Virus record (IMG/VR): IMGVR_UViG_3300044960_000817
Span: 1 to 50,210 of that record
Strand: one strand, 5' to 3'
DNA length: 50,210 nucleotides
From: a virus
Taxonomy: Duplodnaviria; Caudoviricetes
Position 1 is the stretch's first letter; every line of letters starts with the position of its first letter. Below, piece by piece: positions 1,794-22,086 of this stretch. The position numbers and the translations under genes were made by a program. The notes below the pieces were generated by a model, which saw nothing but the letters and a program-made list of their open reading frames with translations, was not told where the DNA came from and searched no databases.

Positions 1794-4700
1794 CCCGTCG
1801 CGCCTCCTAGCACCCCCTGGAACCCATTGCGCCGGCCGGTCTGGAGCAGGAGCGACCGGAGGCGCTCGGCCAGGTCGCGCTCGGTCGTCACGTTGCCCTC
1901 GACGGTGACGTTGACCAGCACGTCGCCGCCGCGGGCGCGCGCGCCGGCGGCGAAACCGCGCGCCAGCGCCGTCTCGGCATAGCGCGTCGCGGTCGCCGCC
2001 GGCGCGGCCGGGGCCGGTGGCGCGGCCTCCGGAGCCGGGGCCGGCGGCGCGGCCGGCGGCGCGGCCGGTGTCGGGCCGCCGCCCACCGCCAGCCGGTTGA
2101 GCTGCCGCCAGAGGGTGATCGCCCGCTCGACCAGCTGGATCACCCGGCCCAGCGCGTCCTCGATGAACTTGAACGCGCCGCCCAGGACGCTCTGCCGGAT
2201 GCCGGCCAGGAAATCGCCTCCCAGGTAGGCCAGCAGGTCGCCGAGCTTGGTCTGGAGCGCACCGACGGCGTTCCAGAGCGTCTCGCTCCAATAGGTCGCC
2301 AGGCCGTCGCTCCAGCGCTTGCCGTCGCCGGTCTCCCACCAGGCGCGCAGGTCGCCCCATTTGGTCTGCAGGCCGTCCCAGGCGCGCTTGGCCGTCGTCA
2401 GCCACTGGTCGGTCTCGCGCTCCAGCCACGCCTGCACGCCGGCGCGGAAGGCGGCCCCGTCGCCGTCCCACCAGCGCTTCAGCCCCTCCAGCGCGCCGGT
2501 GAATTTGCCCCAGGCCGTCACCGCCACGTCGCCGGCCGCCGGCAGCGTCGTCTCCAGCCAGGTCTTCATCTGGCCGAAGCGGTCGCGGCCATCGGTGTCC
2601 CACCAGGCGACCAGCGGCCCCCAGCCGCCCGTCAGCAGGAAGGCCAGGTGCTGCTTGAGCACGGCGGTCGCCGCCGGCAGGACCTGGCTCAGGTCGATGC
2701 CCATCGCCGCCAGCGTCGGCTGGCCGTCGCGCCGCCACCATTCGTTCAGCGCGTTCAGCGCCGGCCGCAGGTCTTTGTTCCAGACGTTGATGAAGGGTTG
2801 CAGGACGTCACTGACCTCCTGCCGCAGCGTCTGGCCGAAGGTGCCGGCCTCCTTCGTCAACGCCGCCCAGGCCTCGCCGAGGGACTTGCCGGTGCCGGCC
2901 AGCGTGCTCAGGTCGTCGGCCAGCCGCTCCAGCGGCCCGGCCAGCCCGTCGATGGTCGTCTGGAGCCCCTGGAGCCGCCCCTCCCACTCGTCGAGCACCT
3001 GGCGGAAGGGGTCGTTCTTCGCCCAGTCGTCGGCCTTGCGCAAGATCTGGTCGATCGGCGTCTCGCCGGCCCCGCCCGGCCCGCCCTCCGGCCCCAGCCC
3101 CAGCCCCGCGCCCGCCCCCGCCTGCTGCGCCTCGGCCAACTGGCGCGCCGCCGTCAGGATTTGGTCCAGCTCCTGCCGCCACGTCTGCGCCCGCTCGGCG
3201 ATCTCGCCGTATTTGGCGCGCAGGTCGGCCAGCGCCTGGCTCTGCTCCTGGAGGCGCTGCCGCTGCGCCTCGACCGCTTTGGCCGCCGCCTGCTCGGCCG
3301 CCTGCGCCTCGGCGAGCTTCGGCTCGATCTCGCCGATCTTGGCCACCGCCCGGCCGACGTTGTCGAGGATCGTCTGGGCGGCCGCCTCCAGTCGCCGGTC
3401 GAGCAGGCGCTTGCGCGCCCGCTCGAAGGCGTCGGTGTCGATCTCGAAGCGGAGCCGGGTCTGCTGACTGAGCAGCCGGAGGCGCTCCAGCCGCTGCTCC
3501 AGCGCCGCCAATTGGCCGGCGCGCGCCCGCTCGACCGCCTCGGCGCGCTTGAGCGACCCCTCCAGGTGGTCGGTGGCCGCCTTCCACTTGACGATGCCGG
3601 CGCGGGCCTGCTCGAAGGTCAACTCCCGGCTATCGTCGAGCAACTGGCGCAGCGCCCGCCGCTGCGGCTCCAGGTCGAGCGCCTCGGTCAGCCGGATGCG
3701 CTCGCCCTCGGCCTGGACGCGCGCCAACTGGCGCTGGTACTGCTCCAGTTGCCGCCGCAGCGGCGCGGTATCGACCGCCTCCTGGAGCCGGATCGTCTCG
3801 CCGACCAGCCGCAGTCGCTCCAGTTCGGCGGTGAGCGCGGCCACCTGGTCCTCGCCGCCGCCGGCCAGGCGCAGCTTGTTGATCTGCAGCTGGATGCGGG
3901 CGATGGCGTCCTCGTTCTCGGCCAGCGCCGCGCTGGTCGCCTCGCCGCTGAGCGCCGCCTGGAGCCGGTTGATCGTCAGCAGCAGCCGCTTGGCGGCCTG
4001 GTCGTTGGCGAACAGCGCCTCCTCATAGGCGCGCGTGCCGACCAGGCTGGCCGCGGCGAACGCCTGCAACTGGTCCCTGGCCCGCGCCAGCGCGCCACGC
4101 AGCGCCTCGACGCGCGCCCGCGCCCGCTCCAGCCCGCCCGTCAATTTGGTCTCGACGATCGCCAGTTCGACCTGGCGCGCCTCCTGCGCCAGGTCGGCCA
4201 GCCGCTCCTCGACGGCGCGCGTGCCCGCGACGATCGCGCCCGCCCACTCGTTGAGCTCGTCGCGCGCGCGCGTCAGTTCCCCGCTTAGCTCGCTCACCCG
4301 CTGCTGGGCGGCGCGCTGGGCGGCCTCCAGGTCGCGCAGCCCGGCGTTGAGCGCCGCCAGCACGGCCTCCTGCTCGCGGATTTGGGCGTTGACCGCCGCC
4401 AGCTCGCGCCCGAGCGCCTCGACCGCCGCCTGGGCCGCCCGGTAGGCATCGACCGCGCCGCCGCCCAGCAGCGCCACCAGTTGCTCGGTCTCGGCCCGCT
4501 GCGCCGCCTCGGCGCGCGCCACCCCGCCGGCCGTCACCGCCTTGAACCGCTCGATCTGGGCGGCGGCGGCGTCGAGCAGCGGGCCGGTGCGGGCGACCAG
4601 GTTGGCGAAGATCTCGGGGATGCGGTTCTCGTAGCCCTCGGTCATCACGTCGATCAGCGAGGGCGAATGGCGCGCGAAGGGGTTGAGATAGTTGAGCGCC

Positions 4701-7792: not shown

Positions 7793-8215
7793 TCAGGCTC
7801 CCTGCGCGTAGAGGCGGTAGCGCCCGCCGAGGTGCTGGTAGACGACGCCGGCGGCCACCTCGCTATAGGCGAGCTCGCCCTCCAGCACGCAGGCGACGAC
7901 CGTGCCGCCGCTGGCGCTGCCGCGCGCCAGGTCGAGCAGCGCGTCGATGCGGTCGGCCGCGTCGCGCGGCGCGCCGGCGATCGACGGGCCCTTGGCGACC
8001 ACCTTGACGACATAGATCAGGTCGGACCAGAGCCGCGCCGGCCCCGCGCCGCGCAGGACGGTGCCGGACTGGAACTGCCAGACGCCGAATGGGTAGGCCG
8101 CTCCCTGCGGCGGCCGGTCGCGCCAGATGCCGCCCGGCAGCAGGCCGTCCAGCGTGGCGTCGCCGGTCAGGCGGGCGGCCAGGAAGGCGTCGGCGACGGC
8201 GGTCGTCAGCGCCAT
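7793..8215 (-). CDS. Tail terminator / completion protein (DUF3168-like)
   Basis: GGIWRDRPPQGAAYPF motif, ADRIDALL; synteny. Confidence 0.75.
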   Translation of the reverse strand: MALTTAVADAFLAARLTGDATLDGLLPGGIWRDRPPQGAAYPFGVWQFQSGTVLRGAGPARLWSDLIYVVKVVAKGPSIAGAPRDAADRIDALLDLARGSASGGTVVACVLEGELAYSEVAAGVVYQHLGGRYRLYAQGA

Positions 8216-8583
8216 CAGGCCGGCCCCCCGCCATCGAGCAGGCGCGTCATCGCCCGCCGGAAGGCGGGCAGGTGGCGCTCCAGCGCCGGCACCAGGTAGG
8301 GCCGGCCGGGGATATATGCGCCGCTGGCGGCGTGGTGGTAGCCCAGCTCGACGTAGACGCCGTAGCCGGTGTTGGTGCCGATCTCGGCCGTCGCCGGGCC
8401 GGTCAGCTGGGCGTGGATGCTGGCCCGCAGCCGGCCGGTGTCGACCGGGCAGGCCAGTTTGGCATCGCGCTCGACGGCGAGCGCGGTCTGGTAGACGACC
8501 CGGCCGGCGCGCGCCGGCGCGGCGCGCAGCAGCGCCGGCAGGCGGTTGTGCTCGAAGGTCACCTCGACGCGGGGCCGGATCAT
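8215..8583 (-). CDS. HK97 gp10-like neck protein
   Basis: AKLACPVDTGRLRASI, YGVYVELG and RPYLVPA motifs; start MIRPRVEV overlaps the upstream stop. Confidence 0.85.
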   Translation of the reverse strand: MIRPRVEVTFEHNRLPALLRAAPARAGRVVYQTALAVERDAKLACPVDTGRLRASIHAQLTGPATAEIGTNTGYGVYVELGYHHAASGAYIPGRPYLVPALERHLPAFRRAMTRLLDGGGPA

Positions 8584-8942
8584 CAGCGCACCTCGATGGC
8601 GCGCACCGCGCGCAGCACCTCGTAACTTTTCGGCACGGCCACGCCGACGACCTCCAGCGTCCGGCCGCCGGTGACGAGCCGGTCCTCGACCGCCACGTCG
8701 GTGCCGGCCGGCAGCCGGATGGTATAGACGAACTGCCCGGCGACCCGGCCGGCCAGCTCGCTCTCGTCGCCGGGCTGGGCCAGCACCAGCGCCGTGACCG
8801 TCGCCAGGTCGGCCCAACTCTCGCTCGGGCCGCCGAGCGCGTCCTGGCTGGCCGTCCGGCGCTGAATGACGGCGGTGGTGGTGAGGGCGGCCGCGGCGTC
8901 GCGCCGCAGCGCCGCCAGGTCAGTTGTCGTCAGCAGCGCCAT
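8583..8942 (-). CDS. Head closure / head-tail joining protein (SPP1 gp16-like)
   Basis: IQRRT..DALGG..ESW, LPAGTDV..EDRL pattern; synteny. Confidence 0.8.
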   Translation of the reverse strand: MALLTTTDLAALRRDAAAALTTTAVIQRRTASQDALGGPSESWADLATVTALVLAQPGDESELAGRVAGQFVYTIRLPAGTDVAVEDRLVTGGRTLEVVGVAVPKSYEVLRAVRAIEVR

Positions 8943-9360
8943 CGAGGTCCGTCCTGCCGCCGATCAGGTCGAAGCGGTCGCGGGTGAAGGCGGGCCGCAC
9001 CCGGTCGGCGTCGTCGTCGCGCGTCTGTTTGTCGCCGATCGCGATGCCGCCGGCATAGACGGTCGCCGCCTGGGTCGCCAGCCTGCGCCGCAGCCGGCGC
9101 AGCAGCGCCTCGTAGCCCTCGCGCTGCTGCTGGCGGGCGACGCTGACGCCATCGACCGACGCCTGGGTGCGGCGCGCCAGCCGGGCCAGGATCGCCTGGC
9201 AGCCGGCCACCGCCGCCCGGATGACCGAGCCCTCGCTGGCCAGCAGCGCGTCGATCTCCTGGTCGAACAGCAGCGGGTCGTTGGGATCGGTGTCGCCGAG
9301 CTCGAAGCGCACCGCGTCGCGGTCGCTGGTGGCGATCTGAGCGGTGTAGGAGAAGCTCAT
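8920..9360 (-). CDS. Head-tail connector/adaptor
   Basis: DAVRFELGDTD...LLFDQEIDALL motif; synteny. Confidence 0.75.
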   Translation of the reverse strand: MSFSYTAQIATSDRDAVRFELGDTDPNDPLLFDQEIDALLASEGSVIRAAVAGCQAILARLARRTQASVDGVSVARQQQREGYEALLRRLRRRLATQAATVYAGGIAIGDKQTRDDDADRVRPAFTRDRFDLIGGRTDLDGAADDN

Positions 9361-9363
9361 GGC

Positions 9364-9654
9364 TCAGTCCCAGACCACGAGCGCGTCGACGCTCGCCGCC
9401 GACGGCGCGACGATGATGCTGGTGCTGAAGGCGGCGTGGAACGCCAGCGCCACCGGCGCGGCGGTGCTGGCCGGCACATTGAGCACCAGGACGGTCGTCG
9501 CGCCATCCTTGAGCGTCAGGGTCGCCGCCGCGCCGCTATTCGAGAGCACGATCCAGCGCAGGATGCCGCGCGTGGCCTTGACCGTCTGGTCGCCGGTGAC
9601 GTTCTGGATGCGCGTGTAGAGGCTGGCGTCGGCATATTTGCGCCCGCTCGGCAT
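9364..9654 (-). CDS. Hypothetical virion protein
   Basis: 96-aa beta-rich ORF, GGGAGG RBS, in the head operon. Confidence 0.6.
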   Translation of the reverse strand: MPSGRKYADASLYTRIQNVTGDQTVKATRGILRWIVLSNSGAAATLTLKDGATTVLVLNVPASTAAPVALAFHAAFSTSIIVAPSAASVDALVVWD

Positions 9655-9670
9655 CGGTCGGCCTCCCGGA

Positions 9671-10009
9671 TCAGGTCAGGTCGAGCCAGAGATAGTCCCA
9701 GGTCAGCGCCGCGCCGTCGATCGCGCCGGCGGTCGGGTTGTAGAGATACACGGTGACGGTGTCGTCGGCCGTCACGCGCGCGCCGAGCGGCAGCAGGTCG
9801 TCCTCCAGCGCCGCCGGCATGGTGACGTAGACGCGGTCGCCCGCCCGCGCGCCGGTCAGGGTGAAGGTGACGCTGCCGCGGGTAGCGGCGGCGATGCTGC
9901 CCGGGTCGAGGCTGACGGTGCCGGCCTGGATTTTCTTGATGTTCGACCCGCCGCCGACGTTGACGCTGCCGACCAGCGCCCGGCCCCGGGTGACGCGGTT
10001 GAGCGGCAT
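9671..10009 (-). CDS. Putative head decoration/structural protein
   Basis: 112 aa beta-rich (TFTLTGARAGDRV...VTADDTVTVYLYNPT); AGGAGG RBS. Confidence 0.6.
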   Translation of the reverse strand: MPLNRVTRGRALVGSVNVGGGSNIKKIQAGTVSLDPGSIAAATRGSVTFTLTGARAGDRVYVTMPAALEDDLLPLGARVTADDTVTVYLYNPTAGAIDGAALTWDYLWLDLT

Positions 10010-10030
10010 GGCGCTCCTCCTGGCTGGTGC

Positions 10031-10405
10031 TTACTTGCTCTTGCCGACGCCCCGGCCGACCGGGGCGACCTCGGCCAGCATCTGCTCCTGGCGCGCCTCG
10101 CGCGCGTCCTCCTCGGCCGGCGTGAGCGGGCGGCCGGCCGCGCGCCGGCGCTGCTCCTCCTCCAGGCGCTGGCCGTGCGCATGACGGGTGGCCAGGTCGA
10201 CGAACTCGGCCCCGTCCAGCGCGCACTGGTAGGTCTCGGCCGTGTCGCTGACCTCGCCCACGTAATTGAGATCGATCAGCTTGCGATCGTTGCGCGCGCC
10301 GACCAGGCGGAAGATCTGGCCGCGATCCAGCGATTGGCCGTTATAGACGAACGGCCGCTTGGCCCAGACCCGCTTGCCGTTGGTGTCCACGTCCCTGCCT
10401 CCCAT
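10031..10405 (-). CDS. Hypothetical protein after capsid gene
   Basis: ORF with normal composition; start may be the GTG at 10390 behind GGAGG. Confidence 0.6.
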   Translation of the reverse strand: MGGRDVDTNGKRVWAKRPFVYNGQSLDRGQIFRLVGARNDRKLIDLNYVGEVSDTAETYQCALDGAEFVDLATRHAHGQRLEEEQRRRAAGRPLTPAEEDAREARQEQMLAEVAPVGRGVGKSK

Positions 10406-10456
10406 GCGGGGCCGGGCGGGTCGCCCGGCGCGTCATGCGATGAGTCCGGCGATCCG

Positions 10457-11413
10457 TCAGGCCGCCGCGTTTTGGGCGAAGATGCCGGCGCTCGCGCCGG
10501 TCAGCTTCTGATCGAAGTAGCTATTGGCCTCGATGATGTCGCACTCGCGCTCCTCATCGCGGAAGCGCCGGATGTACTGGATGGCGCTGGGCACGCGTTG
10601 CCAGACGAAGGTGTAGCCGCCGGAGGGCGTCAGCAGGCTCGGGCGCGGCGGCACGTAGATCAGCAGGGCATGCTTGCCCCAGATGCGGCTGTAGGTGACG
10701 CTGCCCTCGGCGGTGCCCTCGACGCTGGTGGTGTAGATCGCCTTGCCGACCATCACCTCGGGGATCTCGGCCAGCGCCGCGAAGAGCTCCAGCGAGACCT
10801 GGCCGCGCTGGGTGTACTTGATGGTATCGATCAGGTCCGGGTGCCATTTGAGCGACGACCAGAGCTGCTTGCCGATGATCAGTTTGTTCGGCTCGCGCCC
10901 GATCTTGCCCTCGATGTCGTCGCGCCAGGTCGTCAGATCGACCAGCGGCTGCGAGTTCGCATAATCGGACCACTGGGTGAAATCGGTGCCGCCGACCTTG
11001 TCCGCGCCCCACTTGCCGGTGGTGAAGAAGTCGGTGGCGAAGGCGACCTCGCGCCGCATCAGCATCTTGTCGGTGACCATCTCGACCGCGTCGCGGTCGA
11101 GATTGAAGACCGAGTCGGCGTTGTCGCGCTCCTCGTCGTAAATCTCGTGGCCATAGGAATAGCGGTCGCAGAAATAGGTTTCGCTGGTGTCGACGGTGAA
11201 GCCGCCCCGCGCGCTCTTGGTGCCCGGGGCGCGCAGCTTGGCCTCGTCGCGGAACCAGAAGCTCTGGTCGTACTTGGCGATCCGGTCCGACTGCTTCTGG
11301 ACCGGCACGAGCGGGAAAATCCGATCGGCGATATACTCCAGGTTCTGGTAGGCGATGCTGAGATTGGTCAGCAGCGCGTCGACGTGCAGGTCGCGCGCGG
11401 TCGGCTGCGGCAT
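10457..11413 (-). CDS. Major capsid protein
   Basis: 318 aa; HVDALLTNLSIAYQN..IADRIFPLVPV N-terminus typical of lambda-E-like capsids; GGAGG RBS. Confidence 0.9.
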   Translation of the reverse strand: MPQPTARDLHVDALLTNLSIAYQNLEYIADRIFPLVPVQKQSDRIAKYDQSFWFRDEAKLRAPGTKSARGGFTVDTSETYFCDRYSYGHEIYDEERDNADSVFNLDRDAVEMVTDKMLMRREVAFATDFFTTGKWGADKVGGTDFTQWSDYANSQPLVDLTTWRDDIEGKIGREPNKLIIGKQLWSSLKWHPDLIDTIKYTQRGQVSLELFAALAEIPEVMVGKAIYTTSVEGTAEGSVTYSRIWGKHALLIYVPPRPSLLTPSGGYTFVWQRVPSAIQYIRRFRDEERECDIIEANSYFDQKLTGASAGIFAQNAAA

Positions 11414-11922: not shown

Positions 11923-13872
11923 TCAGCCGATGCCGGCGCGCGACCGGACGGTGTTGGTGATCGCGTGCTGCTCGTAGAGGTCGGGGTGCTCGCTGGCGAC
12001 GCGCGCGAGCGCGTCGGCATAGCTGAGCTGGCCCTCGGTCATCGCCTTGGCGACCAGCGCGCCCAGCCGGTCGGTCGGGCTGGTGCCGGCCGGCTCGCGG
12101 CGGCCCGAGCCCTGCTCGCGGAAGAGCGGCTGGACGGCGGCGGCCACGGCGCGGTTGTGCCGGATATACTCCTGGACCGCCTCGCTCTCCTCGCCGAAGG
12201 CCTGGGTCAGCCGCTCCAGCATCGCCAGGTGCTGCGCCGGCTCGCCGAACCAGCGGTGCGGGCTGTCATCGGCGCGCCCCATGATCTCGTCGGTGAAGCG
12301 CCGGGCGCGCGCCTCGGCCTCCTGGCGCGCCAGGCGCTCGGCCAGCGCCTTGCGCTCGGCGTCGGCCTGCTCGGCCAGCCGCTTGGCCTCGGCCAGTTGC
12401 GCCTGCAGCTCGGCGAACTGACGGGTCTGCTCCTCGGTGAGGGTGATCGTGTCGCCCATGCGAGTGACCTCCTCGGGCGCGGCGTCGGTCAGGCCGCGCT
12501 CGCTGGCGATGAGCGGGCGCAGCGCGCCCTCCTTGAAAAAAGGCCGCGTCGTGATCGCGCCGCCGATGGCGACGTCCCGGTGCTGCTGGCCGGTGGCCGG
12601 GTCAGTCCAGACGTCATAGAACTCCGGGCTGACGTACTTGAAGCGGTCGGCCTCGATCAGCGCCACGCCGCGATCGGTCCACGCCACGCGCGCGTCGGCG
12701 CTGCCGTCGGGGTTGACCCGCATGTCGGTGATCCAGCCGACCGCGCCGGAGAGCTTGCTCTCGTGCTCGGCGTCGAGCGGCAATTGCCGTTGGTAGACGC
12801 CGGCCTGGAATTGGCGGACGAAGTTCTCGTTGCGCGCGCGGCTGATCCGGATCTCGCCATAGCGCGGGTGCCGGTAGACGCCGGGCTTGGGCAGGTAGGG
12901 AATCCACTCCGGCGGCTCGGCGAAGGCGGCGGGGGCGGCCTCGATGAAGAGCCGCACGCCGCCGGTCGTGAGCTCGGCCAACTCGCGGTAGGACTGGACC
13001 TCGTCGGCCTCGGCGTCGGTCAGCCCGAGCAGCGCGAACGCGCTGCGCTCGTGGCCGACGGCGACGGTGACCGCGTCGAAGGCGAGCGGGCGCGCCGCGC
13101 CCGGCGCGTCCGGGGCGGGCGCGCCGGGGGCGAGATAGGCGAGCGTGATGTGCGGCAGGAAACCGTGCTCCTGGCTGACCGGCAGGCCGGCCGCCGCCAG
13201 CGCCTCGGCCAGCGCCTCGCGGAAGGCCCCCAGCGCGGGCGCATCGATCAGGGCGTGCAGGCATTCCAGCCCGTCGCTGTCGGCGGTGGGCAGGAAGCGC
13301 CCCAGGCCGGCCACGCGGGCGGTCAGCGGCGGCTGGCCGGCGGCGAGCCGGCCGACGACGCTGCGGGCGGTCGCCGCCTGCTCGTCGGTCAGGTCGCCCA
13401 GGTGGACCAGCGTCAGGTGCAGATCATCGGCGCGCTCGCCGCCGGGCACCGCCAGCGCCGCGGCGTCGGCCGGGTCGGGCCAGAGCGCGACGATGCTGCT
13501 GGTGAAGCGCACCGGGTCGGCCGCCTGGCGCGCGCGCAGCGTCTCGGCGCGCATCATGCCGCCGGCGTGGCCGCGGGCGCGGCGAACACACTCGTCGAAA
13601 TGCTCCGGCGCGACCTTCTCGCGCAGCAGCTCGCGCAGCCGGGCCAGGAAATACCGGGTCGGCCGCGGCTGGTCCGCGCCGTCCGGGTCGCCCTCGGCGG
13701 CGCGGACGGTGCCATTGGCCAGCCGGAAGGCGGCCGCCTCGCAGTCCGCGCCGCGCTCGGCCTGGCAGCGCGCATAGGCGCTATTCCAGACGTCGACCCA
13801 GCGCCGGCGCGGCGCGGCCGGCATGGCGCGGACGTGGGCGGGCAGGTCTGGACTGTCGATCGTGTACGGCAC
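11923..13872 (-). CDS. ChaB - 2H phosphoesterase - Mu gpI-like prohead protease - scaffold fusion
   Basis: ChaB-like MPY..DLPAHVR..RRWVDVWNSAY; two HxT motifs (HLT 13411-13419, HIT 13144-13152); protease motifs LDAEH, AVGWI, WTDRG, KYVSPEF, TTRPF; C-terminal coiled coil. Confidence 0.85.
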   Translation of the reverse strand: MPYTIDSPDLPAHVRAMPAAPRRRWVDVWNSAYARCQAERGADCEAAAFRLANGTVRAAEGDPDGADQPRPTRYFLARLRELLREKVAPEHFDECVRRARGHAGGMMRAETLRARQAADPVRFTSSIVALWPDPADAAALAVPGGERADDLHLTLVHLGDLTDEQAATARSVVGRLAAGQPPLTARVAGLGRFLPTADSDGLECLHALIDAPALGAFREALAEALAAAGLPVSQEHGFLPHITLAYLAPGAPAPDAPGAARPLAFDAVTVAVGHERSAFALLGLTDAEADEVQSYRELAELTTGGVRLFIEAAPAAFAEPPEWIPYLPKPGVYRHPRYGEIRISRARNENFVRQFQAGVYQRQLPLDAEHESKLSGAVGWITDMRVNPDGSADARVAWTDRGVALIEADRFKYVSPEFYDVWTDPATGQQHRDVAIGGAITTRPFFKEGALRPLIASERGLTDAAPEEVTRMGDTITLTEEQTRQFAELQAQLAEAKRLAEQADAERKALAERLARQEAEARARRFTDEIMGRADDSPHRWFGEPAQHLAMLERLTQAFGEESEAVQEYIRHNRAVAAAVQPLFREQGSGRREPAGTSPTDRLGALVAKAMTEGQLSYADALARVASEHPDLYEQHAITNTVRSRAGIG

Positions 13873-14853: not shown

Positions 14854-15291
14854 ATGCCGCATCCATTCGTCCAGTTCCGGGTCGCCGGCGAGGTGGGCGA
14901 CCACCTGCGCCGCCGCGCGAGCGGCCGGCCGCTCGGCGGGATCGCCCGGCGCGACCTGGAGCGGTACTACGCGCTGCTGGCCCAGTCGCTGCGGCGGATC
15001 GCGCTCAGCCAGGACGAGGCGAGCCTGATCGCCGTCGCCTGCAACGGCGTCCTCTGGACGCCGCAGACCGTCGACCTGATTTGGGCCGAGGTCGACGAGG
15101 CGATCCGCGCCGACCGCCTCGACCAGCAATGGGGCGTCGACGGCCCGGCGCTGGTCGATCTGCTGCGGGCGCTCGGGCCGGCCGAGCGGCTGGCGCTGGT
15201 CGATGCCGTCGAGCACCTCTGGACGCTGGTCGGCCAGGGCGACCCGCGCCCGCTGCCGGAACTGCTGCGGGCGGTCGGGCTGGTGGGGTAG
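14854..15291 (+). CDS. Hypothetical protein, possible N-terminal ribbon-helix-helix DNA-binding domain
   Basis: GAGGAGG RBS; FVQFRV strand followed by two helices. Confidence 0.65.
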   Translation: MPHPFVQFRVAGEVGDHLRRRASGRPLGGIARRDLERYYALLAQSLRRIALSQDEASLIAVACNGVLWTPQTVDLIWAEVDEAIRADRLDQQWGVDGPALVDLLRALGPAERLALVDAVEHLWTLVGQGDPRPLPELLRAVGLVG

Positions 15292-15539
15292 GGGGTGGCG
15301 ACATGGCACGGAATTGGGCTGGCCGGAAACGCGGGGTCGGCATGGCGACTGCCTGCCCCTGGAGCCCGCGCGGCCAGCGCCGGACGCCGGTGCGCGCCGT
15401 CTCTGCGGCGCTGGCCGCGCGATCGCGCTCCGCGCCGGCCTGTGGTGCCGCCGGTGCTGGCCGTTCGTCCTGATCTGATTGCTCACGCGATCCCACTCCC
15501 CGACCGGGGCGCGGGATCGTCTCTCTGTAGAGAGGAGGG

Positions 15540-15776
15540 ATGGCGATGATCCTGGACTGGCGCTATACCCGCCCCTGGCGCGTCGAGGTCACCTGCGCCT
15601 CGGGCCGGACCTACACTATCGACGTCAGCGGGGGCGACGATGCCATCGGCTGGGCGGCCTCTGTCAACGAGCTGCCTGGCACGGTCTGGCATTACCAGAC
15701 CGCCCACGAGGCGGTCAGCGACGCGCTCGACGCGATCGACCGCGTCGAGCGCAGGGAGACGGCGAATGCGCGCTGA
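15540..15776 (+). CDS. Small accessory protein
   Basis: GAGGAGG RBS; 78 aa; overlaps next start. Confidence 0.65.
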   Translation: MAMILDWRYTRPWRVEVTCASGRTYTIDVSGGDDAIGWAASVNELPGTVWHYQTAHEAVSDALDAIDRVERRETANAR

Positions 15777-16173
15777 TCTCGCCTGGTCCGACCAGCCGGT
15801 GGACCGGCTGGTCAACCTGACGCCGCACGCCGTCGCGCTCGTGCTCGCCGAGGGCGAGGGCGAGCCGGTCACGCTGGTCATTCCGCCCAGCGGGCAGGTC
15901 GCCCGCTGCGCGGAGATGGCCAGCCGGGTCGGCACGGTCTGCCACCGCGAATCAGCGACGATTCGCGGCGGGATCGACGTCCCCGTGGTCAAAATGATCT
16001 ACGGGGAGATCACCGGGCTGCCGGAGCCGCAGCCCGGCCGCTACTACATCGTCAGCCGCCTGGTGGCCGAGGCGGCGGCGGCGCTGGGCCGGCGGGACTG
16101 CCTCGTCCCGGCCCAGACGGTCCGGGACGGGCAGGGCCGGATCACGGGCTGCCGGGCGCTGGCGCTGGTCTAG
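15766..16173 (+). CDS. NLTPH-motif family phage protein (possible cyclic-oligonucleotide ring nuclease)
   Basis: LVNLTPH, IPPSGQVAR, GLPEP, YYIVS, VRD..G.I.GC motifs; GGGAG RBS before ATG 15766; function is inference. Confidence 0.7.
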   Translation: MRADLAWSDQPVDRLVNLTPHAVALVLAEGEGEPVTLVIPPSGQVARCAEMASRVGTVCHRESATIRGGIDVPVVKMIYGEITGLPEPQPGRYYIVSRLVAEAAAALGRRDCLVPAQTVRDGQGRITGCRALALV

Positions 16174-16408
16174 CGCCGGGCAGCGCCGGCGGATCGTCGC
16201 CTGGCGGATCGCCATCATCCGCGCCGGCCGCGGGCGGCAGCAGGCGCAGGCGCGGCACCCGGACGGCGTTGAAGGTGTGGCAATTGTAGCACTTGATCTC
16301 GGCCGCGCAGCCCGGCTGCCAGCGGAAACGCCCCAGCAGCCGGTTGCAGCGCGAGCAGCGCCACTGCTCCAGGTCGCCGTCATCCGGCCAGGCCAGCGTC
16401 CTAGCCAC
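16142..16408 (-). CDS. Com-family zinc-ribbon regulator
   Basis: WRCSRCNRLL...EIKCYNCHTFN matches the Mu Com pattern. Confidence 0.8.
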   Translation of the reverse strand: MARTLAWPDDGDLEQWRCSRCNRLLGRFRWQPGCAAEIKCYNCHTFNAVRVPRLRLLPPAAGADDGDPPGDDPPALPGARPAPAPGSP

Positions 16409-17315
16409 CGGGGCGCTCCTCGCCGGCGCGCACCAGCGCGATCGCGCAGCGGCAGGCCGGGTGCATCGGCGGCGTCAGCACCGGCCCGAGCGGGGTGGCG
16501 AACGGCTCGGTCAGGCCGACGCCGGGCCGGCCGAACATCTGGCGGCAGTGCGGGCAGGTGCGGTCGTCGCGAGTGACGATCCAGAGCCGCCGCCACTCGG
16601 CCGGCTGGAAGAGGCCGTCGGCGGCCGCCTGCTGCCAGAGCAGTTGCTGGCCGAGGTTGCTGGCGCGCAGCGTCTCGGTGCGGGCGATCAGGGTGGCGCG
16701 CTGGCGGTGCAGCCGGTCGGCGTAGCGGCCGGCGCGGGCGGCCACCTGCGCCGCCGTCAAGCGCCCCAGCAGCGCCTCGGCCTCCAGCCCGGCCAGATAG
16801 TTCTGGTAGGCGGTTGCCGCCGGGCCGGCCAGCCCGATCAGCGGCCGGATGCGCCGGGCGATGGTCGGGATATCCTCGCCGCCCGCCAGGCCACGCCGGA
16901 TCGCCGCGCGCAGCGCCGCCCGCGTCGTGTCGGTCACGCCGGTCACCAGCGCCGCGCCGACCTGGTCGACCGCCGCCAGCGCCAGCGGGTTGAGCAGATC
17001 GAAGCGGATCGCCAGCCCGGCCGCGTCGCGGCCCAGCAGCGTCGGCAACTGGTCGGCCGCCACCCGCAGGCCGGCGCGCGCCGCCGCCAGCAGCACCGGC
17101 GCGAGCAGTAGCCGCAGCCGCTCGCCCTGCGCCGGCCAGTCGATCGTCGCCACCGCCGCCGCCAGGTCGCCGCGCTGGATGGCCGCCCGCGCCGCGCCGG
17201 CGTCGAGCGCCGCCTGGAGCCCGCTCACCCAGGCGGCCCAGGCGCGCCGGAAGGCCGCCAGTTGGCCGTCCGCCGCCCGATGGAGCGCCGCGTAGAGCGC
17301 CGCCAGTCCCGCCAT
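16401..17315 (-). CDS. MuF / SPP1 gp7-like minor head protein (short form)
   Basis: RATLIARTET, W...DDRTCPHC, PPMHPACRC; follows the portal. Confidence 0.88.
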   Translation of the reverse strand: MAGLAALYAALHRAADGQLAAFRRAWAAWVSGLQAALDAGAARAAIQRGDLAAAVATIDWPAQGERLRLLLAPVLLAAARAGLRVAADQLPTLLGRDAAGLAIRFDLLNPLALAAVDQVGAALVTGVTDTTRAALRAAIRRGLAGGEDIPTIARRIRPLIGLAGPAATAYQNYLAGLEAEALLGRLTAAQVAARAGRYADRLHRQRATLIARTETLRASNLGQQLLWQQAAADGLFQPAEWRRLWIVTRDDRTCPHCRQMFGRPGVGLTEPFATPLGPVLTPPMHPACRCAIALVRAGEERPGG

Positions 17316-17316
17316 G

Positions 17317-17465
17317 CTAGTCCGGCGCATACCCGAGGATGCGCCGCACCTCGCCCACGACCGCCGCCGCGCCGGCCGCGCCACCCTTGGGCATCCACTG
17401 GCCGCCCAGCGGATGGCCCTTGGGATAGCGCGGCTGGGACGGGCTATAGAACTGCCGCGAGGCGC

Positions 17466-17469
<4 letters not shown>
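17317..17469 (-). CDS. Uncalled 50-aa micro-protein with QPR...GGQW motif
   Basis: GTG overlaps the portal stop (GTGA), TAG 1 nt before the MuF ATG; MSASRQFYSPSQPRYPKGHPLGGQWMPKGG...GYAPD. Confidence 0.7.
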
Positions 17470-19984
<2,515 letters not shown>

Positions 19985-19985
<1 letters not shown>

Positions 19986-20488
19986 CAGGCGCTTCCCTCC
20001 GGACCGGTCCCGGCCGGCGCGCACCAGATCACGTCGCGCGGCCCGCGCCCGGTCTCCTCGTCGTCCACGGCGCGCCGGGCCGGCGCGGGGCCGGGCGCGG
20101 GCGCGGGGTCGAGCGGGGCGGCCACGAGCGCGCCGCGCAGCGTGAGGCAGATCTCGCCCGGCAGCAGCTGGTCGCTGTCGTCCCAGGTGCCACGGAACCG
20201 ATCGTCCAGCACGGTCGGGTCGAAGCAGTCGGCCGCGCGGGCGCGCAGCACGCACCCGTCGAGCCGATCGGCCAGGGCGGGGTCGTCCAGGTCGATCTGG
20301 AGCGTGATGCGCCGGCGCGCGGCCACCGCCGGGTCGCGCCGGGCCGGCGTGGCCGCGCGCCGGGCGGGGCCCGTGCCAGTGGTGGTGTGGATGGTGACCA
20401 TGCTCGGCACGAGGCGAATGATGGGCCGGGGCGAGCGGGGCAGCGCGGCGTCGTCCGGGCCGGTGACGATGATGGAGGAGACGGTCAT
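19985..20488 (-). CDS. Hypothetical protein between TerL and portal
   Basis: MTVSSIIV... with GGAGG RBS; stop abuts the portal start. Confidence 0.55.
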
Positions 20489-20490
20489 GG

Positions 20491-22086
20491 TCAGAACCTC
20501 CACTTCGAGCGGGCGGTGCTGCCGCTCGGCGCGACCTTGGGCGCGGCCAGTCGCTCGCGCAGGTCGGCCCACGCCCAGTAGGCCGCGTCCGTCAGATCGA
20601 AGGGCTTGGCCTTCGGGAATCGCCGCAGCGCGCGCTCCAGCGTCAGGTGGGTGCCGAGGACGTGGACCAGGCCGCCGCGCTCGTAGTCGGCCAGCATCTG
20701 GCTGGCGCGGTGGACCTTGGGGCCGTGGCCCGCGCCGGCCTTGGCCGAGCGGAAGGCGGGCGGGCGCGTCGCCGCCGGATCGAGGCCGCGCGTCCGGCAG
20801 TAGCTCTCCCAGGCGCGGGCGTAGCTCGACTTCCAGGTATCGCCGCCCTGGTCGGTCTCGACGCCGACCGCCTCGGCCCCGAGCTCGACCGCCTTGGCGA
20901 TGGCGCGCAGCATGACCGCCTCGGGGCCGGCGCGATCCTCCCAGGACCAGAGCCGGTAGATCGTGCCGTCCGCGCCCAGTCCGTCGGCCTGGATGCCGCA
21001 GGCGTCGGAGTCGTCGGTGTCGGTGACGGCCGGGTCGACCCAGACGACGGTGCGCACCAGGTCGGGCACGGCGGCGGCGGCGACGCGCTGCCAGACCAGG
21101 TGGCCGAACAGGCCGCCGTCGGGGTCGTCGACCTCGTGCTGGGCCTCGCGCAGGAAGGCGGTCAGCCCCCAGGTATTGATCTGCTGCTGGCAGACGGCCA
21201 GGTCCTGGCCGGCCCAGGTCGGCGCGCCGCCGGTGATGACCCAGCGGCCGTCGCGCTGCTCGACGGTCAGCCCCTGCACCGCCGGGATCGGGCCGGTCAC
21301 GATCCGGTCGAGCAGGAAGTCGGCGCGCCCGTCGGCCAGCCGGGCGAAGACGCCCTGGTGATGCACCAGGTTCTGGATGGCGATCACGGCGCAGTCGCTC
21401 GCCTCGGCCGGCAGCAGCTTGCGCGTCAGCGCCGCGATCTTGCGCTCGACGGTGCCGGGGCTGTCCAACTCGCCGTCGATGTCGTCCAGGATGATCAGGC
21501 CCGGGCGGTCCTCCTCGATCTTGACGCCGCGGGCGGCGGTGTCGAGGCCGATGGCGTCCAGGGTGAAGCCGGAGGCGGTGCGCAGTCGATTGCGCCGCCA
21601 GCCGCGCGAATTGCCGTAGCGGCCCTTGAGCGGCCGGGCGGCCTCGGGGTAGAGGCGCTCCAACTCGCGCGCCTCCAGCAGGCTGGCGACGTTGCCGACG
21701 TGGTCGTCGGCCTGCTCCTGGGTGCCGCAGACATAGAGCGCATAGGCGCGCTGGCGGCGGGCGGCGATGGCGGCGCAGGCCAGCTCGACCGAGGTGCTCT
21801 TCGCCCCGCCGCGCGGCAGGATCAGCACATAGGGGGCGGGCCGGACGCCCGGCTCGATCGTCCAGATGTGCCGCCAGAAATCCTGGTGGTGCTGGGCGAA
21901 CGGGGCGCGCACGTGGCTGGGGAAGAGCGCCCGCAGCCAGGTCGCGGGATCGGCCTCCAGCCGCGCGCGCTCGCCGGCGTCGGCGGTCGTGACGCCGCCC
22001 TGGCCGCGCGCCAGTCGCAGGCTCAGCCCGGCCAGCCCGAGCGCGGCCGAGCCGCCGAGGAAGGCGCGGCGCGACAGGGCGGCCAC
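20491..22086 (-). CDS. terL: Terminase large subunit
   Basis: Walker A PRGGAKS, Walker B LIILDD, nuclease VWVDPA and DLTDA. Confidence 0.9.
   Translation of the reverse strand: MAALSRRAFLGGSAALGLAGLSLRLARGQGGVTTADAGERARLEADPATWLRALFPSHVRAPFAQHHQDFWRHIWTIEPGVRPAPYVLILPRGGAKSTSVELACAAIAARRQRAYALYVCGTQEQADDHVGNVASLLEARELERLYPEAARPLKGRYGNSRGWRRNRLRTASGFTLDAIGLDTAARGVKIEEDRPGLIILDDIDGELDSPGTVERKIAALTRKLLPAEASDCAVIAIQNLVHHQGVFARLADGRADFLLDRIVTGPIPAVQGLTVEQRDGRWVITGGAPTWAGQDLAVCQQQINTWGLTAFLREAQHEVDDPDGGLFGHLVWQRVAAAAVPDLVRTVVWVDPAVTDTDDSDACGIQADGLGADGTIYRLWSWEDRAGPEAVMLRAIAKAVELGAEAVGVETDQGGDTWKSSYARAWESYCRTRGLDPAATRPPAFRSAKAGAGHGPKVHRASQMLADYERGGLVHVLGTHLTLERALRRFPKAKPFDLTDAAYWAWADLRERLAAPKVAPSGSTARSKWRF

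Follow-up and report, generated by a model that had tools for sequence, protein, structure and literature searches.

A linear motif at the borders of phage head proteins and effector domains, and a 50-codon reading frame that may be a stranded copy of it

Among temperate phages, MuF polymorphic toxins consist of a head-module protein, encoded beside the portal, that bears a variable C-terminal toxin; ADP-ribosyltransferase (ART) domains are among the commonest of these toxins, for which packing in the head and delivery together with the DNA have been proposed (PMC5576092, PMC3482391). Polyvalent proteins, which are multidomain effector arrays encoded among virion genes, include nuclease and 2H phosphoesterase fusions to MuF or portal proteins, and peptidase processing during assembly has been proposed for them (PMC5512222). 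Toxin recombination with stand-alone cassettes is also mentioned (PMC3482391). Portal- and MuF-linked effectors as such are already described in the sections of this literature that we consulted (PMC3482391, PMC5576092, PMC5512222). Here, we analyzed IMG/VR record IMGVR_UViG_3300044960_000817 over its whole length of 50,210 bp (the window), which has direct terminal repeats, is rated complete, and has a G+C content of 73%. The window is a complete 50-kb phage genome carrying a Mu-like head module, in which a portal protein fused to an ART domain (portal-ART) is followed by a 50-codon open reading frame (ORF), the micro-ORF, that repeats the motif found ahead of the ART. The new element is the family to which this motif belongs, and less so the micro-ORF. 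As its contexts suggest, it is a linear motif in flexible linkers at the borders of procapsid proteins (portal, MuF, prohead protease, and scaffold-like proteins) and variable effector domains.

As far as the consulted sections of the MuF toxin papers describe them, MuF toxins resemble portal-ART in coupling a head protein to a C-terminal ART and differ from it in the carrier, which here is the portal and not MuF. Those sections name neither a conserved pretoxin motif nor a counterpart of the micro-ORF (PMC5576092, PMC3482391), and the consulted part of the polyvalent protein description names no linker motif (PMC5512222). Unlike what is reported there for MuF toxins, the motif of the window also joins cargo to prohead protease and to ORFs without a known carrier. 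The portal-ART gene (17466 to 19985, minus strand) sits in the packaging and head module and joins a procapsid carrier domain to a C-terminal effector, the build of a head-delivered polymorphic effector; the micro-ORF does not have this build. The open frame reaches position 20255 (929 codons), and in this numbering the Pfam families Portal_Mu and ADPrib_exo_Tox (PF03496) cover residues 140 to 509 (E 6.8e-26) and 700 to 870 (E 1.6e-21), respectively. The first 90 codons (19985 to 20255) are Arg rich and have no counterpart in homologues. Since portal homologues align only from about residue 90 to 113, ATG 19985 is the probable start, and the true length of portal-ART is likely 839 amino acids. 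The ART domain, of the R-S-ExE type, lies at 17646 to 18158 (minus strand), and its catalytic S178, E224, and E226 are invariant in an alignment of eight motif-ART sequences. Between the portal core and the motif, Tandem Repeats Finder reported a repetitive acidic linker (18365 to 18579, minus strand), with a 30-nt unit present 2.3 times (18365 to 18433; 97% matches) that encodes DEDWWAEGLP twice and a 6-nt unit present 7.5 times (18534 to 18579) that encodes a Gly-Asp run. In the AlphaFold2 model of the linker plus ART, the ART core is confident, with predicted local distance difference test (pLDDT) values of 73 to 92, and the first 64 residues, including the motif, have pLDDT below 50 and no secondary structure. 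The portal is predicted to carry its ART at the end of a disordered linker.

The micro-ORF (17317 to 17469, minus strand), identified from the ORF list and from G+C content by codon position, starts with GTG and encodes seven residues, a motif copy, a Gly/Ala-rich linker, and a 15-residue tail before a TAG stop. At the upstream junction (17466 to 17480, minus strand), GAGG (17480 to 17477) is followed by a 7-nt spacer and by the GTG (17469 to 17467), which overlaps the TGA of portal-ART (17468 to 17466) as GTGA. At the downstream junction (17313 to 17319, minus strand), the TAG (17319 to 17317) is separated by one base from the ATG of MuF (17315 to 17313). The initial annotation had described an ORF exactly filling the portal-MuF gap, and these junctions confirm that the 150-nt gap is filled exactly. 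The G+C contents of the three codon positions of the micro-ORF (0.73/0.59/0.90) are like those of the neighboring genes, in the motif half and in the tail. In the frame of MuF, the 23 codons upstream of its ATG give 0.61/0.91/0.87, a noncoding pattern. Because of this pattern, because the public gene call for MuF (16401 to 17315, minus strand; PF04233) also has 304 amino acids, and because 10 MuF homologues (24 to 41% identity) start at the same point, ATG 17315 is taken as the real MuF start.

These data bear on the idea that the micro-ORF is the true N terminus of MuF, or the C terminus of portal-ART, cut off by an indel or an assembly error. Portal-ART and MuF do share a frame, from which the micro-ORF between them is shifted by one base, and MuF lies C-terminal of the motif in 7 of the 80 parts of the census described below. 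Against this stand the 10 homologues, which begin where this MuF does and none of which has the motif or an alignable extension, so that an N terminus of MuF is ruled out; the intervening 51 codons in the MuF/portal frame also show a noncoding G+C pattern. Contigs from two runs at about 170× depth are identical to the window over 16350 to 18399; the runs come from one sample, possibly the source of the window. A 151-nt contig of a different study covers 17377 to 17527, spanning the upstream junction, with one mismatch and no gap. Since neither the deep contigs nor the independent one shows an indel at the junctions, these are not assembly slips, and sequencing error is ruled out as well. Taken together, the split-gene explanation is largely refuted. 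The tail was also compared with portal C termini (RIL..G.Y in P0010, P0013, and L172); 53% of shuffled tails score as well against 150 portal tails, and a displaced portal C terminus was rejected. The 50-residue sequence itself is present in a protein collection (two members from two contigs), and therefore some gene caller did predict it.

The two motif copies of the window were then compared pairwise. Copy 1 (YDPNQPRYPEGHPRGGQW) lies at 18258 to 18311 (minus strand) in the linker before the ART, and copy 2 (YSPSQPRYPKGHPLGGQW), a long variant, lies at 17395 to 17448 (minus strand) in the micro-ORF. A near-identical motif ahead of the ART had been proposed, and it was found to match at 14 of 18 residues and 43 of 54 bases. 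When the record was searched at the protein level, the second copy was recovered at E 1.6e-9 (59% identity over residues 7 to 35), and because the match covers this range, the repeat also spans the Gly/Ala-rich stretch after the motif, MPKGGAAGAAA in the micro-ORF, which agrees with the Gly-rich flexible linker of the motif family. When all six reading frames of the window were scanned with a regular expression, the only matches were the two copies and an unrelated one on the plus strand. The repeat is beyond chance, given that hundreds of other phage ORFs carry this motif. Among the 18 codons, 10 are identical, 4 differ synonymously, and 4 differ nonsynonymously. The ratio of nonsynonymous to synonymous rates (dN/dS) is 0.27 (5 synonymous changes over 12.3 sites and 6 nonsynonymous over 41.7), and all four replaced residues sit at positions that vary in the family. 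The protein-level conservation that the synonymous differences had suggested is thus borne out. The micro-ORF copy keeps 13 of 13 family-conserved positions; in neutral simulations over a quarter to half of the synonymous distance, all 13 were kept in 2.4% to 0.06% of the runs. As full retention is this rare, selection has acted on the motif for most of its history, and the retention fits a recently stranded joint and a peptide in present use equally.

To define the family, back-translated DNA patterns of the motif were scanned over IMG/VR and over bacterial genomes, one per species. At least 300 nonidentical ORFs carry it, in a short form, Y-x-P-[DN]-QPRD-xx-GRW, or a long form, QPR-x-P-x-G-x-P-x-GG-[QE]-W; the two can share one protein, as in L014. 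Both window copies fit the long form and the general pattern aromatic-x-P-x-[QE]-P-R ... G-[RQKE]-[WF], and the family consensus directly after the motif is T-x-GGG. In IMG/VR, the short form was found in 85 stretches (88 instances) and the long form in at least 120 (at least 135 instances). In the species-representative genomes, the short form was found in 93 stretches (95 instances), from Alphaproteobacteria, Actinomycetota, Chloroflexota, Planctomycetota, Clostridia, and others. The short form carries about 43 bits, for which the chance expectation is well below one match. The exact pattern of the window type had no match in IMG/VR, and a tblastn search of named phages with a 30-residue motif window gave none either, a result that says little with so short a query. 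The motif appears to be absent from existing classifications: no Pfam family covers it, no NCBIfam model matched the nine motif proteins and the micro-ORF that were scanned, PHROGs gave no match for the micro-ORF, and a PDB profile search with 75 motif windows returned only chance-level partial matches (E 1.5 or worse). In text searches of the literature, whose reach did not extend to supplements and figures, no paper found names it.

As seen in the domain censuses, the motif stands between head proteins and passenger domains. Parts shorter than 60 residues and identical duplicates were removed before the Pfam censuses, and genome ORFs were trimmed to 450 residues on either side of the motif. 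N-terminal of the motif (57 nonidentical parts), we found two portal families (8 and 6 parts), MuF (6), Acb1 (4), ART-PolyVal (4), and 2'-5' RNA ligase (2). C-terminal of it (80 parts), Zeta_toxin (14), ADPrib_exo_Tox (8), MuF (7), ART-PolyVal (4), and DUF7178 (4) were found, with single cases of a pesticin-type lysozyme, CdiA-CT RNase A, Tox-REase-5, glucosaminidase, 2H phosphoesterases, and others. The 95 ORFs from bacterial genomes contain three portal families (4, 3, and 1), MuF (4), the Peptidase_S78 prohead protease (2), Ntox50 (3), a CDI EC869-like nuclease (2), and CHAP (2). About 70% of them have no Pfam domain among the families listed, and no trafficking domain of type V, VI, or VII secretion is listed among the 95. 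In 23 ORFs, the motif comes first (at most 60 residues from the first start codon), and these ORFs lie directly behind head or cargo genes; the 17 distinct upstream neighbors that were scanned include six portal-family genes and one each of MuF, S78, Acb1, and ART. Two to four copies occur in 30 of the 300 nonidentical ORFs, at a median spacing of 310 residues; the copies were counted by a loose regular expression, which undercounts diverged ones, and phmmer sees five to six copies in L058 and L072. Of 221 complete motif ORFs, 213 continue for at least 31 residues past the last motif, and the other 8 for at most 30. These N- and C-terminal contexts, the copy spacing, and the disordered position together underlie the reading as a border motif. 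The initial annotation had called for a profile-type search and a list of the domains that follow the motif, and had expected an association with head genes and passenger domains. The association was recovered, with Zeta toxin, ART, nuclease, and lysozyme domains behind the motif, and it extends to prophages of many phyla.

In Rhs and CdiA systems, a short conserved motif borders the constant carrier and the variable toxin, and downstream of it are found displaced or truncated modules in which the motif is retained. The motif described here takes a like place at the border, with another sequence and with phage-head delivery. By analogy, it is the phage-head counterpart of the pretoxin border motifs of other polymorphic toxin systems. 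A cassette array comparable to theirs is seen in L297 (IMG/VR, about 8067 to 11350, plus strand), where a motif, a C-terminal domain of about 90 residues, and a small ORF are repeated, an arrangement resembling the orphan-cassette arrays of polymorphic toxin loci; the repeated small ORF is a possible immunity gene. One of the cassettes carries a frameshift, a further degenerate motif (KYADGQPRVPAGS) follows, and a 65-residue ORF of L297 is a frameshifted copy of a motif-toxin gene in this array. The micro-ORF, in contrast to the Rhs and CdiA modules, keeps only the motif and linker and has no toxin domain or immunity gene behind it. It behaves like a degenerate orphan and is not a formal member of the orphan-module class, which would combine a border motif, a toxin tip, and an immunity gene. 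With 25 residues after the motif, it also lacks the folded domain that characterizes the motif family.

Next, portal-ART was used as a phmmer query against 1.8 billion representatives, and the portals retrieved had 427 to 1757 residues. Six of the best 150 carry Y-x-P-[DN]-QPR...G-x-W in a C-terminal extension, between the portal and another domain, and a seventh of these 150 (P0118) has an HPR variant. The closest motif-bearing portal, P0002, is composed of the portal, an ART-like domain, the motif, and a terminal ART, and the motif plus ART of the window aligns end to end with its terminal motif plus ART (E 3e-22). This alignment, the stand-alone motif-ART genes L264 and L307, and a distinct G+C content at third codon positions (GC3) suggest that the motif-ART cassette is a unit. 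At residues 483 to 497 of P0002, before the first ART-like domain, a different linker motif (HLPGQHDQKAHG) is followed by a Gly run. Strings of the form H-D-Q-x-x-H-G occur in other phage head proteins, and HLPGQHDQKAHG may represent a second family of junction motifs. In three metagenome contigs of 54 to 57% G+C (L457 to L459), the motif occurs in arrays, and one copy, KYDPSQPRYPKGHPKGGQWM, agrees with that of the micro-ORF in 17 of 19 positions, more closely than copy 1 of the window does. The micro-ORF copy belongs to a conserved subtype, QPRYPKGHP-x-GGQWM, that is also present in these unrelated contigs. Since KYDPSQPRYPKGHPKGGQWM is the nearer relative, the two window copies are better seen as members of family subtypes than as a simple local duplication; the occurrence of the same motif across very different base compositions argues for conservation at the peptide level. 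The L457 to L459 contigs have very long ORFs with several motif subtypes, each copy followed by a domain of 250 to 400 residues, mostly of unknown family, and are a rich source of unclassified cargo domains. A further group from Nitrospirillum and Azospirillum (L365, L373, L382, L388, L398, L409, L430, L431, and others) shares a conserved N-terminal stretch of about 115 residues that ends in NDNLAKYSPDQPRD..GRW and continues into C-terminal parts that vary from 165 to 280 residues; several such loci per genome are possible. The N-terminal part had no NCBIfam match in the one member scanned, L365, and may be an unrecognized carrier domain.

To place the micro-ORF in the history of the locus, its relatives were sought. 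No homologue was found in INPHARED phages (tblastn) or in IMG/VR. In a collection of 5.8 billion proteins, the near-length search returned only the micro-ORF itself and the longer-protein search returned none; ESM Atlas scores reached at most 0.87, which makes them leads only. No equivalent of the micro-ORF exists in 80 loci of portal relatives and 80 loci of MuF relatives. The motif is absent from the former and present in one of the latter, in another gene. Among the portal-relative loci, 61 have a separate downstream MuF gene, and in 48 of these the first start codon of MuF falls between −80 and +30 nt relative to the portal stop, mostly within a few bases of it. Because of this proximity, the ancestral state of the clade was probably a portal coupled directly to MuF, with the linker, motif 1, the ART, and the micro-ORF as additions in this phage. 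The GC3 of motif 1, the ART, and the micro-ORF (293/327) is lower than that of four core genes (1537/1623; Fisher P = 0.001), which fits a later acquisition. A second motif behind the ART is what a longer array would have, as judged from L038, where motif, ART, and motif lie in a single reading frame, and from the ART-motif-ART order of P0002.

Based on these data, we consider, at a probability of roughly 55%, that the micro-ORF is an orphaned joint between modules, one that lost its cargo or never gained any and that is kept open as a translationally coupled relay from portal-ART to MuF. The motif and its Gly/Ala linker would have been stranded by deletion of a second cargo or when a motif-ART cassette recombined in. 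Ribosomes ending at the TGA of portal-ART would restart at the overlapping GTG, with GAGG 7 nt upstream, cross 50 codons, stop one base before the ATG of MuF, and pass to the MuF start. Such a relay would restore the portal-to-MuF coupling that relatives have directly, and the micro-ORF would stay open, and probably be translated, by lying in the coupling path. The 5-kDa peptide as such is probably functionless. A relay role fits the stop-start overlap, the GAGG, the one-base gap, and the lack of promoter-like or terminator-like sites in 16200 to 18400. The reading as an orphaned joint draws on the rarity of short or bare-motif ORFs elsewhere, which mostly look like products of damage or truncation. 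One is the frameshifted ORF of L297. Another is a 30-residue bare-motif frame in L353 (IMG/VR, reverse strand, about 3140 to 3255), which, at a G7 run, overlaps a PF04860 portal at its end and closes four residues past the motif, the next ORF resembling a head maturation protease; the frame switch at the G7 run reflects either an indel error or slippage that gives a motif-ended portal. The initial annotation had offered the remnant of a second, lost cargo as one of its readings of the micro-ORF. This part is favored, without being settled, by the lack of a homologue, the lack of an equivalent in the 160 loci, and the rarity of tag-only ORFs (4 of the 221 complete motif ORFs have at most 90 residues, and one of these is frameshifted). 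The alternative offered there, a tag-only decoy or regulator, is neither favored nor disfavored by the data.

The RNA of the region was also evaluated. The segment from 17290 to 17500 (minus strand) is predicted to be more stable than shuffled sequences (z −3.1), and after G+C correction it falls in the lowest 1.2% of 334 same-strand windows. The fold is long range and pairs the start region of the micro-ORF with that of MuF; a 9-bp hairpin lies within its motif-coding part. Such a fold hints that MuF translation might depend on passing ribosomes. Its stability could also be read in favor of recoding, by which a −1 frameshift before the portal-ART stop would extend some chains by the micro-ORF and place the ART between two motifs. 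The micro-ORF is indeed in the −1 frame and open for five codons ahead of its GTG, L038 has motif, ART, and motif in one frame, and the frames of L353 switch at the G7 run. Nevertheless, the 15-nt window GAG GCA GCG GCG TGA contains no slippery heptamer X XXY YYZ, and the long-range pairing is not the compact element just past the site, 5 to 9 nt downstream, that is characteristic of frameshifting, so that we regard recoding as highly improbable. Another possibility, that the micro-ORF is an untranslated relic, appears rather improbable as well. It would be the decaying end of a longer gene, still open since stop codons are rare in DNA of 73% G+C, with MuF using its own start. Long chance ORFs are plentiful in all frames of this genome, GTG is a weak start, and the start, stop, and openness all survive in 11 to 30% of neutral simulation runs. 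A relic accounts poorly, however, for the exact stop-start overlap at one end, the one-base gap at the other, the GAGG at the right distance, and the retention of every conserved motif position.

Some of the features that disfavor a relic would also suit a functional tag-only peptide. In this explanation, the motif docks at an internal procapsid site, and the free 5-kDa peptide either is itself packaged or, by competing with ART-bearing and other tagged proteins, sets how much of them is taken up. The intact ORF, the Shine-Dalgarno-like GAGG, the gene-like composition, and the 13 retained positions, improbable under neutral drift, are consistent with it, and so is the membership of the copy in the conserved subtype that recurs in the contigs of 54 to 57% G+C. 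Bare-motif ends do exist: the L255 and L315 proteins end right behind the motif ("...GGQWTK"), as does the portal-end frame of L353, and in the scaffold-like protein L345 the motif lies 43 residues from the end. On the other side, the lack of a homologue in the searched collections, the lack of a counterpart in the 160 related loci, and the 31 or more residues that follow the last motif in nearly all complete ORFs speak against a tag-only peptide, and docking by the motif would be redundant where it is mostly fused to a procapsid protein already. We therefore consider a functional tag-only peptide unlikely. A complex prediction for the portal core, MuF, and the micro-ORF scored 0.18, against a mark of 0.32, and counts neither for such a peptide nor against it. 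Some of the observations in favor of a tag-only peptide do weigh against an orphaned joint. The retention of all conserved positions implies that selection acted until recently or is acting now; the ORF is intact, start and stop included, and gene-like in codon composition over its whole length, the tail too; the proteins without cargo behind the motif (L255, L315, and L353) suggest that the motif may have a function of its own; and no relative close enough to reveal the ancestral state was found, so that the deletion or recombination history is one that we infer.

The initial annotation had proposed that the motif is a capsid-loading or ejection tag, and a release or processing site fits the motif data about as well. 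We tentatively place a docking or retention signal first, without giving it even odds. It would explain the bare C-terminal copies and the stand-alone cargo genes that begin with the motif; it would be redundant, given that cargo is often already fused to a procapsid protein. More doubtful is a processing or release site, which would explain a copy at every joint and the need to free the enzyme from a portal retained in the virion. Against it, phages with five portal families, whose proteases presumably differ, have the same motif. Equally doubtful are other roles, such as a structural recombination joint or the binding of DNA or a host factor. Encapsulin cargo-loading peptides, which guide cargo into an HK97-fold shell by a short linear motif beside a flexible Gly-rich linker, offer a parallel in the combination of motif and linker, and a few motif proteins likewise end in the bare motif. 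In T4, the capsid-targeting sequence is N-terminal on Alt and on internal proteins and is removed by the prohead protease, so that here too a short peptide stands ahead of packaged enzymes, including an ADP-ribosyltransferase injected with the DNA. There is no sequence likeness to either system, and the present motif, a candidate signal, is usually N-terminal of its cargo, unlike encapsulin peptides. The packaging of T4 Alt is noted in the consulted part of the polyvalent protein account (PMC5512222). It is improbable, in our view, that the QPR...G[RQ]W motif serves tailed phages across many phyla and several portal families as a portable signal, sufficient by itself, for docking in the procapsid or for ejection, with the micro-ORF as a deliberate cargo-less tag, like the bare-motif ends of L255 and L315 and the portal-end frame of L353, that is packaged or titrates a docking site. 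If such a portable signal were real, placing a protein after some 20 residues would be enough to load it into phage heads.

The surrounding genes complete the picture of the module. On the minus strand, the order is a 531-residue ORF (20491 to 22086; no Pfam match), a 195-residue ORF (19985 to 20572), portal-ART, the micro-ORF, MuF, and an 88-residue zinc-ribbon protein (16142 to 16408). The 195-residue ORF, between the 531-residue ORF and the portal, ends at the probable portal start, has a gene-like GC3 of 0.92, and gave no PHROG match. The zinc-ribbon gene overlaps the MuF stop by 8 nt, and its product matches phrog_6417 (E 1.6e-5), annotated as a translational regulator; we take it to resemble Com of Mu. 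Between the zinc-ribbon and protease genes, three plus-strand ORFs of gene-like composition (14854 to 16173) break up the minus-strand head module, and the 177-residue member matches phrog_21731 and phrog_30542, of unknown function. Past them lie the head maturation protease, a scaffold protein, and the major head protein. The protease is itself a fusion (11923 to 13872, minus strand), with the protease at residues 319 to 630 and an RNA-ligase-like N-terminal domain at residues 121 to 282 that matches phrog_14859 and phrog_2659. It is a second enzyme on a procapsid protein of this phage, here without the junction motif.

Overall, the motif provides a simple sequence handle for finding head-delivered effectors and points to many unclassified cargo domains. 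As a candidate signal for cargo loading or release in phage heads, it may be useful for engineered protein delivery. It also offers an explanation for the exchange of cargo cassettes among unrelated phages, and the micro-ORF would matter mainly as a footprint of such exchange.

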